This document shows, piece after piece, positions 1 through 34,066 of a DNA stretch of 64,000 nucleotides. Source of the stretch: Escherichia phage UP19. The notes beneath the pieces were generated by a model. It was not told the origin of the DNA. It was given only the letters and a program-made list of their open reading frames with translations, and did no database searches. The stretch lies in the sequence record OX638288; one strand, written 5' to 3'. A program made the position numbers and the translations under genes. Positions within the stretch are counted from its first letter, which is position 1. Each line of letters starts with the position of its first letter.

Positions 1-195
1 AGTAAGATTGGTGAAGTATCTAAAAAGGATTTTGGAAAGGTAATGGGACTGACAGTCCAAGATATTTTGGAAGAAGCAGCCCGTGAAGAATTAGAATTAA
101 CCGATGCAGAAAATCCTGTTGAAGTTAAAAAGCAGCTCGTTGAGTGTGTAAAAGATACCTTAAGAGCCGTATGGATTGAACTAGTATCCAAATAA
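1..195 (+). CDS. 3' end of a gene running in from the window edge (partial), product unknown
   Basis: Frame-1 open from position 1 to TAA at 193-195; convergent with the gene 24 paralog; followed by a hairpin terminator. Confidence 0.4.
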   Translation, partial: SKIGEVSKKDFGKVMGLTVQDILEEAAREELELTDAENPVEVKKQLVECVKDTLRAVWIELVSK

Positions 196-200
196 ACAAT

Positions 201-229
201 AAAGGGACCTTACGGTCCCTTTTATTTTT
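201..229. terminator. Bidirectional intrinsic terminator between convergent genes
   Basis: Stem GGGACC(204-209)/GGTCCC(214-219), loop TTAC, A-run upstream and T-run downstream. Confidence 0.6.
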
Positions 230-1502
230 CTAGTGGTGGAAGTTTAACACCAAGATAAGAACTCAACTGGCTTTGGTTAGCCATTTTGTCCATATCAGAG
301 CCATCAATAATGCGGGCTTCTTTATAGTCCTTAGCGACGGTATAAGGGTTTGCAGTCAATGCATAACGAGCAAGCAATGCTACTGTAGGTTGTAAGCTTT
401 CCGGGTCAACAATAACCTTAAATTCACCTACTGAAGTATCCCCTTCCTCATCAACCTCATTCAAACCTTCCGTATAAGGCGCATAATATAAAGATGCGAC
501 TGTCTGTCCTTCACCCATCTGAGCATTTACACCAACAATAACATAATCACATGGACTATTCATATCAGCATAAAGAGGCAGACCATTCTTTAATACACCA
601 TAAGCCAGTTCGTCCTGGTCTTCCTTTTTCTCAACCCAACCAGAAGCGGCGAGAATAGCAGCACAACGAGAACTAGCTACTGCATAAGTCCCGGCGAAAG
701 AAGTTTGACGTTGGACGGCAGAGTTCATCTCACACATGTAATAATATAATGTACGAGCACGGTCCTGGGCATTATCGTAACGTGGGTTGGTAAGGTCTAA
801 TACACCCTTTTCAGAAACACCCTGGACTTTAAAACGAGAACTCACCGTAATTAATGACTGCAATACGTCCTTATTAATTTCTTCTGCCATTTGAATGCCT
901 AGCAGATTTTCAACGAAATTAGGAGCATTAAACCCATTTGATTCTAGGTCTTGGGCCAATTCGACTGTCAAAGAAGTTTTCAGTTTACGTGATTTAACCT
1001 CAGATTGCCATTTATCAATACGGAAGCCTGCTTCAGCAATTTCAGGGTGACCTTGTTCAAATTTAGAAGTAATAGCAGCATCTGATACCATACGAATATG
1101 CCCAGCGGCCACTGCTTCAGAAATAACTTCACCGAGGTCGGTTTCTGTGGTTCCGGCGAAAGGAGATGCTTCTAGAACTTTAAACACTACACTTTCAAAT
1201 TGGAACATATCGCCGGCTGCATAAGCTGTAGACGAATCGGTAAATTCAGGAATATTTTCACGTTCCGACATACCAATCTGGCCTGCAAATGTAGCGCCAC
1301 CAAGATAAGTCATTTTGTCGTCGGGATTAAGTACACGAATCCCGTACAGAGCGGCAACAGGTTGGCTTGTTTTTTGTTCAGCAACTAGGGCTTTAAAGAT
1401 TCGTTTATTAGTTGCTTGGGTGTATGAAAGAAGAGCAGGACGGCCAACCGAGTTGGCAGCCGTCAATGTGGATTCTTTAATTAGGTCTATAATCTTAGAC
1501 AT
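222..1502 (-). CDS. Second gene-24-family head vertex protein paralog (gp23/gp24 fold)
   Basis: 426 aa; roughly half identical by eye to the adjacent gp24; shared blocks SRKLKT..LTVELAQD.ESNGF and PYTVAKD.KEARIIDG; ATG overlaps the upstream stop (TAATG). Confidence 0.75.
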   Translation of the reverse strand: MSKIIDLIKESTLTAANSVGRPALLSYTQATNKRIFKALVAEQKTSQPVAALYGIRVLNPDDKMTYLGGATFAGQIGMSERENIPEFTDSSTAYAAGDMFQFESVVFKVLEASPFAGTTETDLGEVISEAVAAGHIRMVSDAAITSKFEQGHPEIAEAGFRIDKWQSEVKSRKLKTSLTVELAQDLESNGFNAPNFVENLLGIQMAEEINKDVLQSLITVSSRFKVQGVSEKGVLDLTNPRYDNAQDRARTLYYYMCEMNSAVQRQTSFAGTYAVASSRCAAILAASGWVEKKEDQDELAYGVLKNGLPLYADMNSPCDYVIVGVNAQMGEGQTVASLYYAPYTEGLNEVDEEGDTSVGEFKVIVDPESLQPTVALLARYALTANPYTVAKDYKEARIIDGSDMDKMANQSQLSSYLGVKLPPLEK

Positions 1503-2785
1503 TAATCAGCCTCGTAAATAATTGCTGGAAGTTTAACACCAAGCAGATAAGACATATTGCTCTGACCAGCCATTAAATCCATATTGGTTGCATCGATAAC
1601 ACGAGCTTCTTTATCGTCTTTAGCTACGGTGTACGGGTTAGCGGACAGTGCATAACGAACCATCAGAGAAATAGAAGGCTGTAATGAATCAGGGTCGACA
1701 ATAACCTTATAAGCACCAACGTGTTCTTGGTCATCTAAATCCAGGCCTTCTGTGTATGGGGCATAGAAAATAGAACCGACAACTTCATTACCTCCATAGT
1801 TCTCTTTAACACCTACGATAACATAATCCAATGGGCTGTTAACGTCACAGAACAGAGGTAATCCATTCAACAAATAACCATAGGCAGTTTCTGGGAGCCA
1901 ATTATTATCTTCAGGTTTATGTTTTAACCAGCCAGAACCTGCAAGCATTGCAGCCACACGACTTGAAGCCACAACAAACGTGCCGGAATAAGAAGTAGTT
2001 TTCTGGATTTCAGAATTCATCTCACAAACAATTTCATAAAGTTTACGTGCGGATTCCGGAGCACTGGCATAAGTCAAATCGATGATGCCATTATCAGATA
2101 CACCAGTAACTTTATAGCGTTTAGATACGGTTATTAGAGATTGCAGAACGTCTTTATTAATTTCATCTGCCATTACTGTAGCCAGGAGGTCTTCTAAGAA
2201 TGCAGGGGCGTCGAAGCCATTTGATTCCATATCCTGTGCCAATTCTACGGTCAAAGCAGTCTTCAATTTACGGGTCTTAACAGGAGCATTCCATTTATTA
2301 ACCTGGAATACGGCGTCAGAGATTTCTACATCACTCGCTTCGAATTTAGTGGTATGAGCAGCGTCCGGAACCAGACGACATGTTAATGACACCAAACCTT
2401 CTTGAAGAGCATCAGCCAATCCTGTAGCGCTAGTAGATGCGAGTGGGCTTGCTTGAAGAGCCTTATAAACCACATTCTGATACTTAAAGTAGTCACCCTT
2501 GGCAATAGCCTGGGCTTTATCTGTGAGTTCCTGGATAGTTTCACGGTCTTTAGAACCAACTTCACCACCATAAACAGCACCAGTTTGGAAACTGAATTCA
2601 TTATCAGGGGTAAGATATTTGACACCATACAATGCAGCAATAGGCTGACTAGTACGTTGTTCAGCGATGATATCGCGATAAATTAGTTTAGTGGTAGCAC
2701 GGGTCAAAGCAACAAGATTAGGGCGACCCAATGAGTTGCTGGTAGTAGTTGTTGACTCGCGCAGTAATTCGTTAATCTTTGCCAT
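1502..2785 (-). CDS. 24: gp24 head vertex protein
   Basis: 427 aa, same length as T4 gp24; N-terminus MAKINELLREST and most of the length match T4 gp24 as remembered. Confidence 0.9.
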   Translation of the reverse strand: MAKINELLRESTTTTSNSLGRPNLVALTRATTKLIYRDIIAEQRTSQPIAALYGVKYLTPDNEFSFQTGAVYGGEVGSKDRETIQELTDKAQAIAKGDYFKYQNVVYKALQASPLASTSATGLADALQEGLVSLTCRLVPDAAHTTKFEASDVEISDAVFQVNKWNAPVKTRKLKTALTVELAQDMESNGFDAPAFLEDLLATVMADEINKDVLQSLITVSKRYKVTGVSDNGIIDLTYASAPESARKLYEIVCEMNSEIQKTTSYSGTFVVASSRVAAMLAGSGWLKHKPEDNNWLPETAYGYLLNGLPLFCDVNSPLDYVIVGVKENYGGNEVVGSIFYAPYTEGLDLDDQEHVGAYKVIVDPDSLQPSISLMVRYALSANPYTVAKDDKEARVIDATNMDLMAGQSNMSYLLGVKLPAIIYEAD

Positions 2786-2813
2786 TGCGCTTTCCTTATT
2801 GAGGGTATATGTT

Positions 2814-2821
2814 TATTTATA
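2814..2821 (-). promoter_or_regulatory. T4-type late promoter (TATAAATA) for gene 24
   Basis: Plus-strand TATTTATA is TATAAATA on the minus strand, about 30 bp upstream of the gene 24 ATG. Confidence 0.6.
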
Positions 2822-2886: not shown

Positions 2887-3156
2887 ATGGACAAGTTAAA
2901 CTTTATTCGTACTACTCTTTCAGCTCTTGATAAAGACATCAAAGCCTTGGTAGAAAAATATGGTTCCAATCCTAATGGTAATGCAGTGAACGCGTTAGTT
3001 AAGAAATACGAAACCATGGCTTATGCTACTGACTTCTGGTGGAATGGTGAATACTCTACCCATACCAAAGACAAATCCGGTAACTGGCTGAAAATCCAAG
3101 AAAATCGTATTGACTTCCGTGATATCATCAACCGCCGGGTCAAAGTAGAGGCCTAA
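2887..3156 (+). CDS. Hypothetical small protein, first gene of the seg cassette
   Basis: ATG at 2887 with GAGGAG SD at 2864-2869; the ORF-track start at 2872 lies inside the SD. Confidence 0.45.
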   Translation: MDKLNFIRTTLSALDKDIKALVEKYGSNPNGNAVNALVKKYETMAYATDFWWNGEYSTHTKDKSGNWLKIQENRIDFRDIINRRVKVEA

Positions 3157-3159
3157 AAT

Positions 3160-3819
3160 ATGAATTATTTAATTTATAAAATAACTAATCTCATTAATAA
3201 CAAGATTTATGTTGGAGCCCATGCAACCGTAGATATCAACGATTCTTATATGGGCTCCGGGGTTAACGTAGTAAAATCCATAAAGAAATACGGATTGGAG
3301 AATTTTAAAAAGGAAATCCTTTTCAATTTCGAAACATCTGAAGAGATGTATGCTAAAGAAGCCGAACTAGTTGATGAGGCTTTTGTCATGAGAACAGATA
3401 CCTATAATGCGGCCATAGGCGGTAAGGGTAATCCTGTTATAGTAGCTTTACAGGAACCTGGGTATCGTGAGATGTTATCCAAAAAGACTAAGGCCGGTAT
3501 GACTGAAGAAGTTCGGGCCAAAATATCTAAAAAGAAATTAGGTTCTAAAGAATCTAAAGAACATCGAGAAAACAAATCTATAGCAAATAAAAAGTTTTAT
3601 AAAAATAGAGATTCTCATCTTAAAGGTAGAAAACTATCAGAAGAGCATAAAGCAAAAATTAGAAAGAATTCTAATAAAGGTAAGAAATTTGTATTTGTGG
3701 ATATTTCTATTAAAGGTCATGAATTTAACCACTACGATTACGCTGCCGAATTCTTTAACGTATCCGCAAAAACTATAAGAAATTGGATTAATGAACGCGA
3801 TGATTGTTTTAAGCTATAG
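3160..3819 (+). CDS. GIY-YIG homing endonuclease (seg-like; same position as T4 segD)
   Basis: N-terminal YLIYKITN..KIYVGAH and YMGSG..NAAIGG match the GIY-YIG fold; basic C-terminal tail; 219 aa; opposite strand to 23 and 24. Confidence 0.7.
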   Translation: MNYLIYKITNLINNKIYVGAHATVDINDSYMGSGVNVVKSIKKYGLENFKKEILFNFETSEEMYAKEAELVDEAFVMRTDTYNAAIGGKGNPVIVALQEPGYREMLSKKTKAGMTEEVRAKISKKKLGSKESKEHRENKSIANKKFYKNRDSHLKGRKLSEEHKAKIRKNSNKGKKFVFVDISIKGHEFNHYDYAAEFFNVSAKTIRNWINERDDCFKL

Positions 3820-3829
3820 AAACAAGAAT

Positions 3830-3847
3830 GGGAGACCGGAGTCTCCC
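3830..3847. terminator. Hairpin terminator between the convergent seg-like gene and gene 23
   Basis: GGGAGAC-CGGA-GTCTCCC; near-identical hairpins recur at 41800 and 42859. Confidence 0.5.
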
Positions 3848-3876
3848 ATAAGGTTATGTATTTTAACGTTAAAGCA

Positions 3877-5436
3877 TTAAATTCCTTTAACGTAGACGCG
3901 TCTAAAGTAACCATTCAGACCAAGGCTATTAACAATGTCCGGCATGCCGTTCTGAATGCGCTTGGTCGGAGCCTGAGCAGCAGGGTCAGCAAACGGGTTA
4001 ATACCGATACCGTAACGAGTTTTGAAGCCCATTACCGGCTGGAAGTTCTTCGGATCGGAACCGCGCAGTGGGGTCAGTGCAACGTAAGGAGCGTAGTAGA
4101 TACCTGCGTCCATTTCGTTGGAACCTTTATAACCGATAGTGAAGTAATCAGCACGGGCATACTGGTCGATGTAAACGCGATATTTACCACCAAGAACACC
4201 GGCAAATACTGCTTTAGTGGTGTCAACGTTGAAACCTTGACCCAGACCCTGAGCGGCATAACTTACAGAAGTATCAACTGCAGCCAGTACGTTAACTACG
4301 TTACGGGAAGCGATGATGAAGTTACCAGCACCACGACCGGTCTGACGAGCGATTTCGGCTGCTTCTTTATCAATCTGGAACAGAAGGGCTTTAAAGCTCT
4401 CACCGGCCCAACGAGCACCACGGATATCAATCGGGTCCTGGAAGTCAAACACACCAGCTTTAGCGCCAACGGTGTTGGTCATACCGGATTTACCAACCTG
4501 TGCAGAGTAGTTAATCCAATCGATAACTTCACGGTTGATTTCCAGCATAATTTCGGTAGCCAGAATACCACTCAATTCAGCATCTGCATCCATACCGTGT
4601 ACTGCACGAAGGTCCTGTGCCAGTTCGATGGAGTAGCTTGCTTTCAGCTGACGGGATTTAGCTTCGATAACTTGTTTATCGATACGGAAGCCCATTTCGT
4701 TCCACGGGTTATCAGTAGAACCGTTGAAGCCTTCCTGAAGTTCAGCGATAGAAGTAGCCATACCTTCAGCCAATTCAGCCAGCTGACCAGCTTCTAACAG
4801 AGCGGTTACGGCAACATCCAGTTTAGCGGCATCGGTAGCAGCGGCATCAACGGTTACGGCTTCAACAGCCTGGAAGTGTGCAGAACCGGTAGCTTCGAAG
4901 AAGTGAGAATAAATTTTACCAACTTCCAGAACTTTACCTGCAGCCAGTGCTTCAAAAGTCTGAGCAGCACCCTGACCAGAGAACATAGCATTCGGAGCAT
5001 ACATCGGGTGGAAAGCTTCTTTAGCACCAGCAGCGATAGGGTCTTTACCGTATACTGCACGCAGTGCAAATACCTGGCCGGTAGGGTTATTCAGAGGCTG
5101 AACACCACAAATATCAAAAGCAATCAGATGAGGAATAGCACGACGAACCATACCCATTACTGCCGGCCCAATCTGAGTTACAGCACCAGAGGTCTGGCCA
5201 GCTGCGATATTGGTAGCATCATAACCGTGGTCACCACCGATTTCAGCTTCAGTCAGGAAAGAACCAAATGCTTCGGAGATTTTTTCGTCACGATATTCAG
5301 GAGCGGTCAGAATATCTTGTTCCTGGTTTTCAAAGATTTTAGCGATGATAGCTTGTTTAGAAGCACCAACGATTTCAGGAAGAGCTTCGTTTTCCAGCAG
5401 AGCGGACCATTTTTGAACTAATGCATTCTTTTTCAT
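3877..5436 (-). CDS. 23: gp23 major capsid protein
   Basis: 519 aa; ..LPEIVGASKQAIIAKIFENQE.. and gp23/gp24-family blocks; position after 22. Confidence 0.92.
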   Translation of the reverse strand: MKKNALVQKWSALLENEALPEIVGASKQAIIAKIFENQEQDILTAPEYRDEKISEAFGSFLTEAEIGGDHGYDATNIAAGQTSGAVTQIGPAVMGMVRRAIPHLIAFDICGVQPLNNPTGQVFALRAVYGKDPIAAGAKEAFHPMYAPNAMFSGQGAAQTFEALAAGKVLEVGKIYSHFFEATGSAHFQAVEAVTVDAAATDAAKLDVAVTALLEAGQLAELAEGMATSIAELQEGFNGSTDNPWNEMGFRIDKQVIEAKSRQLKASYSIELAQDLRAVHGMDADAELSGILATEIMLEINREVIDWINYSAQVGKSGMTNTVGAKAGVFDFQDPIDIRGARWAGESFKALLFQIDKEAAEIARQTGRGAGNFIIASRNVVNVLAAVDTSVSYAAQGLGQGFNVDTTKAVFAGVLGGKYRVYIDQYARADYFTIGYKGSNEMDAGIYYAPYVALTPLRGSDPKNFQPVMGFKTRYGIGINPFADPAAQAPTKRIQNGMPDIVNSLGLNGYFRRVYVKGI

Positions 5437-5457
5437 GTGTTGTATAACCTTATTAAA

Positions 5458-6273
5458 TTAAGAAATTCGTGATGCTGCGATTGCAGACAGGTCCGCGAAG
5501 GACAGGGTAGGCTTAGCGCCTTTTTCTTCAACTGCTTCCGAAATATAATTCAGTGCTGCAGCATCGTCTTCAGTTTTATTTATAGCGGCTTCGGTGATTG
5601 GTTTTTCAACGTCAGTCTGGCCTTTAACCATTTCAACGATAGCGCCAATTTTTTTACCAAATGCATCGGAATAATCCATGCCTTCTACCAGAGAACTAAC
5701 TTTTTCTTTCTGAGATTCAGTCAGGTCTTTAGTTGCTTCCATAACAGCTTGTTCACGCTGTACGTAATTAATATATGCGTCACGCTTGCCAACTTCTTCG
5801 AACAAACGAGCGGTTTCGGCTTTCTGTTCAGCCAATTCTTCTTCCATTTCAGAAACAACGTCTACTGCTTCTTCTGGAACAACCACGTTATGTTCAACAA
5901 ACAGTTCTTTCATACCCATCAACATGGATTCGAACAGTTCGGCTTTAATACCTTTATCAACAGCCAGCTGGTTTTCAGCCATCCATTCTTTAGCGACGTG
6001 GTCAAGGAAACGACCAGCAGCTTCTTGGATTTTCTTATCAGCTTTTTCTTCAGCTTCTTCTTTATTTTTCTCAACTTCTTCTTCCGCTTTTTCAGCGATT
6101 TTAGCGATGTGAGATTCCGCCAGTTTAACGGCGTGTTGCTTGACGGTAGCTTCGAATACAGTGCCGAAAGTTTCTTTTGCTTCCGGAGAAATATTAACTG
6201 ATTCGAAAATACTGTCAAGAGCAACGGAAGCATCAATATTCTGTGCTTCGGCGATCAGTTGTTCTTTAAGCAT
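5458..6273 (-). CDS. 22: gp22 prohead core scaffold protein
   Basis: 271 aa, highly acidic and helical; synteny 21-22-23. Confidence 0.85.
   Translation of the reverse strand: MLKEQLIAEAQNIDASVALDSIFESVNISPEAKETFGTVFEATVKQHAVKLAESHIAKIAEKAEEEVEKNKEEAEEKADKKIQEAAGRFLDHVAKEWMAENQLAVDKGIKAELFESMLMGMKELFVEHNVVVPEEAVDVVSEMEEELAEQKAETARLFEEVGKRDAYINYVQREQAVMEATKDLTESQKEKVSSLVEGMDYSDAFGKKIGAIVEMVKGQTDVEKPITEAAINKTEDDAAALNYISEAVEEKGAKPTLSFADLSAIAASRIS
5577..5584 (-). promoter_or_regulatory. Late promoter TATAAATA upstream of gene 23, inside the 3' end of gene 22
   Basis: Plus-strand TATTTATA at 5577-5584. Confidence 0.5.
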
Positions 6274-6300
6274 TTTGTAGTCCTGTTGTTTAGATAATAA

Positions 6301-6308
6301 TATTTATA
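6301..6308 (-). promoter_or_regulatory. Late promoter TATAAATA upstream of gene 22
   Basis: Plus-strand TATTTATA at 6301-6308, 28 bp upstream of the gene 22 ATG. Confidence 0.55.
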
Positions 6309-6939
6309 ACGCTTTTTTCATGGCCTCTGCGAGAGCCATAAAGGCGTCATCGGCACTGGTATCGGTATCTACCGTTTGTGATTCTGTAATTTGTTTAGGA
6401 GTTACATAAGCATCAGGAGCAGATGGACCCCATACTGCATCAACACCGACGGTTAATTTATAACCTTCGTTTACACGCTTATATCCTTTATTGGTTTCGG
6501 TTAAAGAACCTAGACCACGAGAACTAACACCAGGCACCCAACCGGCTCTAATATTAGCAGCTAGTTTATCACCAGGACCATGGTCGCCTTCAATAATACG
6601 AGCACGTCCATAAACGTCATTACCTTTCCACCACATATCTTCAATAATAATAGCGGCTTGCATAGGGTCGACGTTAGCGCGAGGCGGATGATTTAATTCT
6701 CCTAAAGCTTGTTTAGTAGCAACCTGTTCTGCCATATAATCAGCAACAGCTTTTTCCAAAATAGGTTTTGGATAAAGGCGTTTATTACGGTTAACCACTT
6801 CGGCTTGCATGAATATGCCTTCTATATAAAGGCCCGGGGCAAGTCCAGAATCTTTTCCATCATGAGATTCCAACATCGGAACCCCATCGATAATTTCACC
6901 TGGTTGTCCCCAATGTTCGATGAGCAATTCAGGTTTCAT
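6304..6939 (-). CDS. 21: gp21 prohead protease
   Basis: 211 aa; synteny 68-21-22; length matches T4 gp21. Confidence 0.85.
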   Translation of the reverse strand: MKPELLIEHWGQPGEIIDGVPMLESHDGKDSGLAPGLYIEGIFMQAEVVNRNKRLYPKPILEKAVADYMAEQVATKQALGELNHPPRANVDPMQAAIIIEDMWWKGNDVYGRARIIEGDHGPGDKLAANIRAGWVPGVSSRGLGSLTETNKGYKRVNEGYKLTVGVDAVWGPSAPDAYVTPKQITESQTVDTDTSADDAFMALAEAMKKAL

Positions 6940-34058: not shown

Positions 34059-34066
34059 TATTTATA
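34059..34066 (-). promoter_or_regulatory. Late promoter TATAAATA for gene 53 (divergent partner)
   Basis: Plus-strand TATTTATA 28 bp upstream of the gene 53 ATG. Confidence 0.6.

Follow-up and report, generated by a model that had tools for sequence, protein, structure and literature searches.

Why does a phage carry two genes for what looks like the same capsid vertex protein, and do the products of both end up at the vertices of its head? This question is raised by a locus of Escherichia phage UP19 (sequence record OX638288), of which we analyzed a stretch of 64,000 nucleotides (nt), referred to as the window. Downstream of gene 23, which encodes the major capsid protein gp23, two genes of the gene 24 type follow each other, here named 24a (copy 1) and 24b (copy 2). 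In T4, all vertices except the portal one, 11 in total, are occupied by pentamers of gp24, with ~55 copies per virion. An earlier note on this DNA had described the two as complete tandem genes of the gp23/gp24 type with 427 and 426 amino acids (aa), the second being clearly diverged from the first and coupled to it by a TAATG. All of this was recovered: both open reading frames (ORFs) are found downstream of gene 23, their products share 56% identity over the full length (BLASTP, E 3e-176) and the stop codon of 24a overlaps with the start codon of 24b (Table 1). Our answer to the question is that 24a and 24b are probably both processed subunits of the prohead vertex which are made together late in infection, with 24a being the canonical protein and 24b an accessory subunit that is specialised and dependent on 24a.

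To begin with the family assignment, both proteins match Pfam PF07068 (Gp23 family) with 330 bits for 24a and 325 bits for 24b at a cut-off of 24.4, as well as PHROG 138 (E 3e-131 and E 1e-122, respectively), and both align over the full length with the crystal structure of T4 gp24 (1YUE). For 24b this alignment pairs residues 1-423 with residues 1-422 of T4 gp24 (E 1.6e-150, 505 bits), and the T4 gp24 chains of 1YUE and of the capsid structures 7VS5, 5VF3 and 8GMO are all matched with E values of 1e-147 to 1e-150, whereas the best gp23 chain reaches merely 46 bits (E 1e-11). Between 24a and gp23 BLASTP found 26% identity over ~300 aa (E 2e-18). The alignment to gp24 and gp23 that the earlier note had proposed as a check thus gave an end-to-end match to gp24 and a far weaker one to gp23, and because the scores are so strong, chance can be discounted for the homology. 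At the level of single phages, 24a is 71% identical to gp24 of RB51, T2 and T6 (tblastn) and 24b is 57% identical to gp24 of T2. T4 gp24 is the sole member of the gp24 family in the PDB, where no 24b structure was found, but we regard the fold of 24b as settled because of its 57% identity to the crystallised gp24. Judged by this full-length homology, which is stronger to gp24 than to gp23, both copies are members of the gp24 family, 24a as the canonical gp24 vertex protein and 24b as a diverged gp24 paralog and the orthologue of 24b from JS98, JS10 and IME08 and of 24(2) from VR7. A role of both copies as capsid vertex proteins is compatible with the tests made.

24b is under purifying selection comparable to that on gp23. 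Unsaturated pairwise ratios of nonsynonymous to synonymous substitution rates (dN/dS) are 0.053-0.061 for 24a, 0.053-0.065 for 24b and 0.045-0.056 for gp23, and the ORFs are intact in all ten pairs examined. In T4 the gp21 prohead protease cuts after the consensus (L/I)xE. The N-termini read MAKINELLRE↓S in 24a and MSKIIDLIKE↓S in 24b (the arrow marking the cut), and LIxE↓S is kept at the cleavage position in 10/10 aligned 24b sequences. T4 gp24 sheds its first 10 residues on maturation; residues 11-20 of gp24* reach onto the neighbouring hexamer (the N-arm comprising residues 11-30), residues 26-29 pair with an I-domain linker of the adjacent subunit, and contacts to the capsomers around it are made by residues 143-154, which form I-domain linker 2 (PMC9546572). 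Both the N-arm pattern ST.T..N..(G/A)RP and the I-domain linker-2 motif (D/E)AAxTxxFE are present in each of the ten 24b sequences; the lattice-contact elements of T4 gp24* therefore appear to be retained in 24b. Counting a position as diagnostic when 24b and the remaining gp24s differ there and each of the two groups is conserved to 90% or more, we found 14 such positions, nine of them in residues 25-68. Among the diagnostic positions are, in T4 numbering, 34 (L/R), 57 (Y/V), 66 (F/Y), 244 (P/Q) and 415 (L/Y). It is in this region, from the N-arm to I-domain linker 1, that the clade-specific changes distinguishing 24b from T4 gp24 are concentrated, and in T4 it includes elements pairing adjacent subunits of the pentamer (PMC9546572).

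The signals around the two genes suggest that they are expressed as one unit. TATAAATA is the T4 late-promoter consensus, and the copy of it upstream of 24a is the only such box which a pattern search detected between the terminator of gene 23 and the end of 24b, 24b having no TATAAATA box of its own. Direct reading of the minus strand at the junction of the two genes gives GAG GCT GAT TAA TG TCT. Promoter and junction were compared in eight pair-bearing phages: the TATAAATA box stands before 24a at the equivalent place in all eight, the ribosome-binding site of 24a is (A/G)AGGAAAG in seven and AAGAGAGAAG in Cronus, and a GAGG or GAG before the start of 24b is kept in seven. The junctions of all eight are TAATG, TAAATG, ATGA or TGATATG, so that stop and start codon overlap by up to 4 nt or are at most 1 nt apart. 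On the far side of 24b lies a perfect hairpin (AAAGGGACC-TTAC-GGTCCCTTT, with T-rich tails on both strands), which serves as a bidirectional terminator, ending the transcript of 24a and 24b on one strand and that of the convergent rnlB on the other. One promoter, coupled junctions and flanking terminators together point to a bicistronic late operon in which translational coupling has been conserved, and such a coupled arrangement is typical of proteins that are needed together. Over the whole window TATAAATA occurs 16 times, compared to 7.5 +/- 2.8 expected, with 11 boxes on the minus strand (ten before ~17.6 kilobases (kb) and one at 34059) and five on the plus strand (all from ~34 kb on); this strand bias fits a block of late structural genes on the minus strand followed by late genes on the plus strand.

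How unusual is such a pair? The window belongs to a Dhakavirus and shows 96% DNA identity to JS10 and 90% to JS98 and IME08 (megablast). GenBank already has names for the two genes, namely 24a/24b with the label 'gp24 head vertex protein' in JS98, JS10 and IME08 and 24(1)/24(2) in VR7. The second copy goes by 'capsid vertex protein II' in VR5, VR20, VR25 and VR26, and in ZX14 by 'head vertex protein II'. The abstract of the 2004 JS98 paper reportedly refers to a duplication of gene 24 in this phage, and for S16 and Melville the same tandem duplication is described in a genome announcement (PMC6486254). The novelty which the earlier note implied is thus not given, as the gene arrangement is already known and ordinary for the genus. 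Locus, order, lengths and junction of 24a-24b in JS98, JS10 and IME08 are the same as in the window, so that we see here the same feature in another isolate, with both proteins 99% identical to those of JS10 and with 95% (24a) and 91% (24b) identity to those of JS98. The earlier note had also allowed for copy 2 turning out to be a known different structural gene; it is a known gene, namely 24b, but only in that sense. Its contrast to the T4-type locus, with one gene 24 followed by rnlB, was found as described in T2 and RB51, where rnlB is convergent.

The synteny in related phages, which the earlier note had suggested to look at, extends the tandem pair to six genera. Using a tblastn survey with a threshold of E<=1e-60, which leaves out gp23, we identified 1495 gp24 places in 1377 phage records with gp24, and therefore ~118 records should have two copies; at the DNA level 113 records cover 80% or more of gene 24b. 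Pairs were inspected in Dhakavirus, Gaprivervirus (VR7, UPEC01), Gelderlandvirus (Melville), Roskildevirus (Cronus), Marfavirus (P545, F48, Marfa) and Kanagawavirus (ZX14). The second copies from VR7 and VR5/20/25/26 (Gaprivervirus), S16 and Melville (Gelderlandvirus), F48 and Marfa (Marfavirus), ZX14 and Cronus all fall into the 24b clade of the window and encode proteins with 66-91% identity to its 24b. As in the window, the second copy of these pairs follows 24a with tight coupling, and a late promoter precedes the first copy. A one-by-one check covered the 60 records closest to one 24b query and ten sampled pairs. A second gp24 gene is present in 60/60 of these closest records, and no 24b without a 24a-type partner was found among the 60 records and the ten pairs, whereas 24a-type genes commonly stand alone.

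To take a closer look at the origin of the two copies, a neighbour-joining tree of 31 gp24 sequences was reconstructed (300 bootstraps). All second copies are united in a single clade in 99.7-100% of the replicates (99% in a smaller tree with two pairs fewer). Except for Cronus, whose first copy lies outside this group in contrast to 24a of the window, the first copies of the pair-bearing phages also form a clade of their own (100%), which is nested among the single gp24s, and the branching orders of the two clades largely mirror each other. The 24b clade is basal to the gp24s of Tevenvirinae plus Acinetobacter phages with moderate support (74%). All Tevenvirinae gp24s read 'LVA' at residues 25-27 and have Lys at residue 56, whereas 24b has 'LLS' in common with both outgroups, ZZ1 and JSE, and Arg56 in common with JSE. 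Long-branch attraction alone is unlikely to explain the basal 24b because these states of N-arm and linker match the outgroups. 24b thus appears to be an old lineage and not a recent duplicate; it may go back to an ancient duplication with later losses, or it may have been acquired from a lineage that has not been sampled. A recent duplication within the genus was considered as well and ruled out by the basal position together with the residue states. The closest relative of 24b outside its own clade is the Jiaodavirus-type gp24 (64%), the sole other gene matched at the DNA level. A derivation of 24b from this type of gp24 was considered as well, and a grouping of the two occurs in only 1-5% of the bootstraps. 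Identities between the window and Melville are 87% for 24a and 85% for 24b, between the window and P545 73% and 79%, and between the window and Cronus 64% and 68%; after their split both copies have diverged at similar rates.

Pair and single gene can also replace each other. UPEC01, which has the pair, and SP18, which has a single gp24, both belong to Gaprivervirus and are 98.3% identical in gp23 and 95.8% in RnlB. Their DNA is 95% identical on both flanks, on one side up to a point ~215 nt inside gene 24 and on the other starting 15 nt before the end of 24b, and the single gp24 of SP18 shows 69% identity to 24a and 55% to 24b of UPEC01. The pair and the single-gene allele are therefore swapped as a clean cassette between near-identical genomes. 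A similar case is found in Marfavirus, where P545 with the pair and AmPh_EK29 with a single gp24 are both assigned to the species Marfavirus F48, the gp24 of AmPh_EK29 being 70% identical to 24a of P545. Within Dhakavirus, 24a of JS98 and IME08 groups with JS10 and the window (98%) and their 24b with VR7 and UPEC01 from Gaprivervirus (99%), and as the two trees disagree, a recombination breakpoint must lie between or within the genes.

The order of genes in the window is 23, a spacer, 24a, 24b and the convergent rnlB, with two plus-strand ORFs in the spacer. One is conserved, encodes 94 aa, matches PHROG 6003 (E 5e-49) and no Pfam family, and is the positional counterpart of a small plus-strand hypothetical ORF in JS98 (orf173), JS10, IME08, SP18 and VR7. 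The other, antisense to 23 and 24a, encodes a Seg-type GIY-YIG homing endonuclease of 219 aa with a match to PHROG 314 (E 9e-53) and with scores for the Pfam families SegE_GIY-YIG and GIY-YIG that are under their cut-offs. It is also found in IME08 and IME341 (annotated SegD) and is absent from JS10 and JS98, which accounts for the 89% query coverage of these two genomes. Genes for Seg-type endonucleases are located within or next to the 23-24 spacer in the window, IME08, AmPh_EK29, Serratia phage 4S and TG1. The spacer looks like an insertion hot spot because homing endonuclease genes flank gene 24 elsewhere too, and gene conversion stimulated by the endonuclease would be a plausible driver of the cassette swaps.

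Table 1: Features of the gene 24 locus in the window and of the loci compared for the cassette exchange.
Feature	Position	Strand	Source or remark
Gene 24a (copy 1), 427 aa	1502..2785	-	intact ORF (ORF listing)
Gene 24b (copy 2), 426 aa	222..1502	-	intact ORF (ORF listing)
Gene 23, major capsid protein gp23, 519 aa	3877..5436	-	ORF upstream of the pair
TAATG stop/start overlap 24a/24b	1500..1504	-	stop TAA 1504-1502, start ATG 1502-1500
GAGG, Shine-Dalgarno-like element of 24b	1510..1513	-	within the 3' end of 24a, 8-11 nt before the ATG
Predicted late promoter box TATAAATA	2814..2821	-	pattern search; ~30 nt upstream of 24a
Ribosome-binding site AAGGAAAG of 24a	2790..2797	-	sequence reading; downstream of the TATAAATA box
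Terminator hairpin, 9-bp stem, T-runs on both strands	201..222	both	terminator scan
Terminator-like hairpin after gene 23	3828-3849		terminator scan
rnlB, 3' end	1..195	+	convergent with the pair
Spacer ORF, 94 aa	2872..3156	+	
Seg-type GIY-YIG homing endonuclease ORF, 219 aa	3160..3819	+	
Cassette locus of UPEC01 (L008), pair	4001..6565		compared with SP18
Cassette locus of SP18 (L009), single gene	3001..4281		compared with UPEC01

From these data we propose the following model for the pair. The late promoter would drive 24a together with the TAATG-coupled 24b in a transcript closed by the terminator, and both proteins would enter the prohead. There the gp21 protease would remove the first 10 residues of both at (L/I)xE↓S, and both would then sit at the pentameric vertices of the gp23 lattice, 24b as an accessory vertex subunit and not as a substitute for 24a. 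A dependence of 24b on 24a is suggested because 24b was only seen beside a 24a-type gene in the records examined and because the two clades largely mirror each other. Some points weigh against this model. A literature search, which had the JS98, VR7 and S16 papers outside its scope, found no virion proteomics, cryo-electron microscopy or function for 24b of any pair-bearing phage, and the virion proteome of a Klebsiella Jiaodavirus is not informative on 24b, as this genus has a single gp24. SP18 and AmPh_EK29 get by on a single gp24 even though the genes around it are near-identical to those of pair-bearers, and as the gp23 of SP18 is almost that of UPEC01, 24b is not required by the gp23 lattice. 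Furthermore, the (L/I)xE motif is short and could be kept by descent alone, and the 74% support for the basal position of the 24b clade comes from neighbour-joining only.

Some of these points would also suit a 24b that is expressed but stays out of the virion and acts in the infected cell, e.g. by helping in vertex assembly, or by serving as decoy or modulator for a host system that senses proteins of the capsid type. The literature search gave no virion evidence, the viable single-gp24 relatives with near-identical gp23 make 24b dispensable for the head architecture, and the patchy occurrence within genera and species (P545 vs AmPh_EK29; UPEC01 and VR7 vs SP18) is typical of accessory genes. 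Nevertheless, we consider such a role unlikely. 24b is not truncated and retains the cleavage motif of the propeptide, the N-arm and the linker motif between capsomers, and over the entire protein it shows a dN/dS as low as in gp23. The late promoter and the close link to 24a are what one would expect of a subunit that co-assembles, and a decoy would have no need of the lattice-contact elements. It is also rather improbable that the two copies are redundant, with one of them maintained for its contribution to dosage, or as a spare allele mixing randomly into the pentamers without a distinct role. Such redundancy would agree with the predicted co-expression from one promoter, with the retention of all recognisable gp24 elements in both copies and with the tolerant vertex occupancy in T4, where gp23 bypass mutants can replace gp24 (PMC3012670; PMC10580926). 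On the other hand, the copies share only 56% identity, the 24b lineage has been kept distinct across six genera with its 14 diagnostic substitutions, no 24b stands alone among the records and pairs checked whereas 24a-type genes do, and a headful-limited genome would be expected to lose or homogenise a redundant copy. That 24b is a decaying or non-functional duplicate we regard as hardly conceivable: apart from relatives without 24b nothing speaks for it, and the intact ORFs in 10/10 pairs, a dN/dS of ~0.05 and a divergence between phages that is as slow as for 24a speak against it. A pseudogene was ruled out by dN/dS.

A further suggestion we make only tentatively and with some doubt. 24a and 24b might not be interchangeable but form distinct or ordered mixed pentamers at different vertex classes of the prolate head, which could be, for example, the apical versus the ten shoulder vertices or a portal-proximal versus a distal ring. 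This is hinted at because nine of the 14 diagnostic sites are located in residues 25-68 with the elements used for pairing within the T4 pentamer.

Compared to T4, both copies of the window show the same family, length, N-terminal cleavage motif and place downstream of gene 23 as its gp24. The difference is that T4, T2 and RB51 have one gene whose product fills all 11 pentameric vertices, whereas UP19 is predicted to co-express a second lineage. The older duplication from gp23 to gp24, which gave the T4-like phages a vertex protein of their own, followed the same logic, with a capsid-fold gene being copied beside its parent and the copy becoming specialised (PMC10580926; PMC3012670). While the gp23/gp24 split divided the roles of hexamer and pentamer (~21-26% identity), the 24a/24b split took place within the pentamer protein (56%). 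A comparable situation is found in the alpha-carboxysome, whose shell has the adjacent pentamer (vertex) paralogs CsoS4A and CsoS4B. This is an analogy only, with neighbouring vertex-capping paralogs in one operon for an icosahedral shell but an unrelated fold and no homology.

As the gene arrangement itself is known, the remaining interest lies in the role of 24b. T4 is the reference for the assembly of prolate capsids, with vertices made from one protein, and about one in twelve of the sequenced gp24-bearing phages (~118/1377) carries a second strongly conserved vertex-type protein. Without gp24, T4 capsids withstand low pH and digestive enzymes less well (PMC10580926), and many pair-bearers, JS98, S16 and F48 among them, are candidates for phage therapy or biocontrol. 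Since the vertex composition affects robustness and pair-bearers are therapy candidates, the question of whether 24b is a stabiliser has some practical value. With UPEC01 or VR7 vs SP18 and P545 or F48 vs AmPh_EK29, nature provides near-isogenic contrasts that make the role of 24b directly testable. If the two proteins were indeed assigned to different vertex classes, these phages would be tailed viruses with two dedicated penton proteins, and 24a plus 24b would represent a laterally exchangeable 'capsid-corner upgrade' that alters the stability of the particle.

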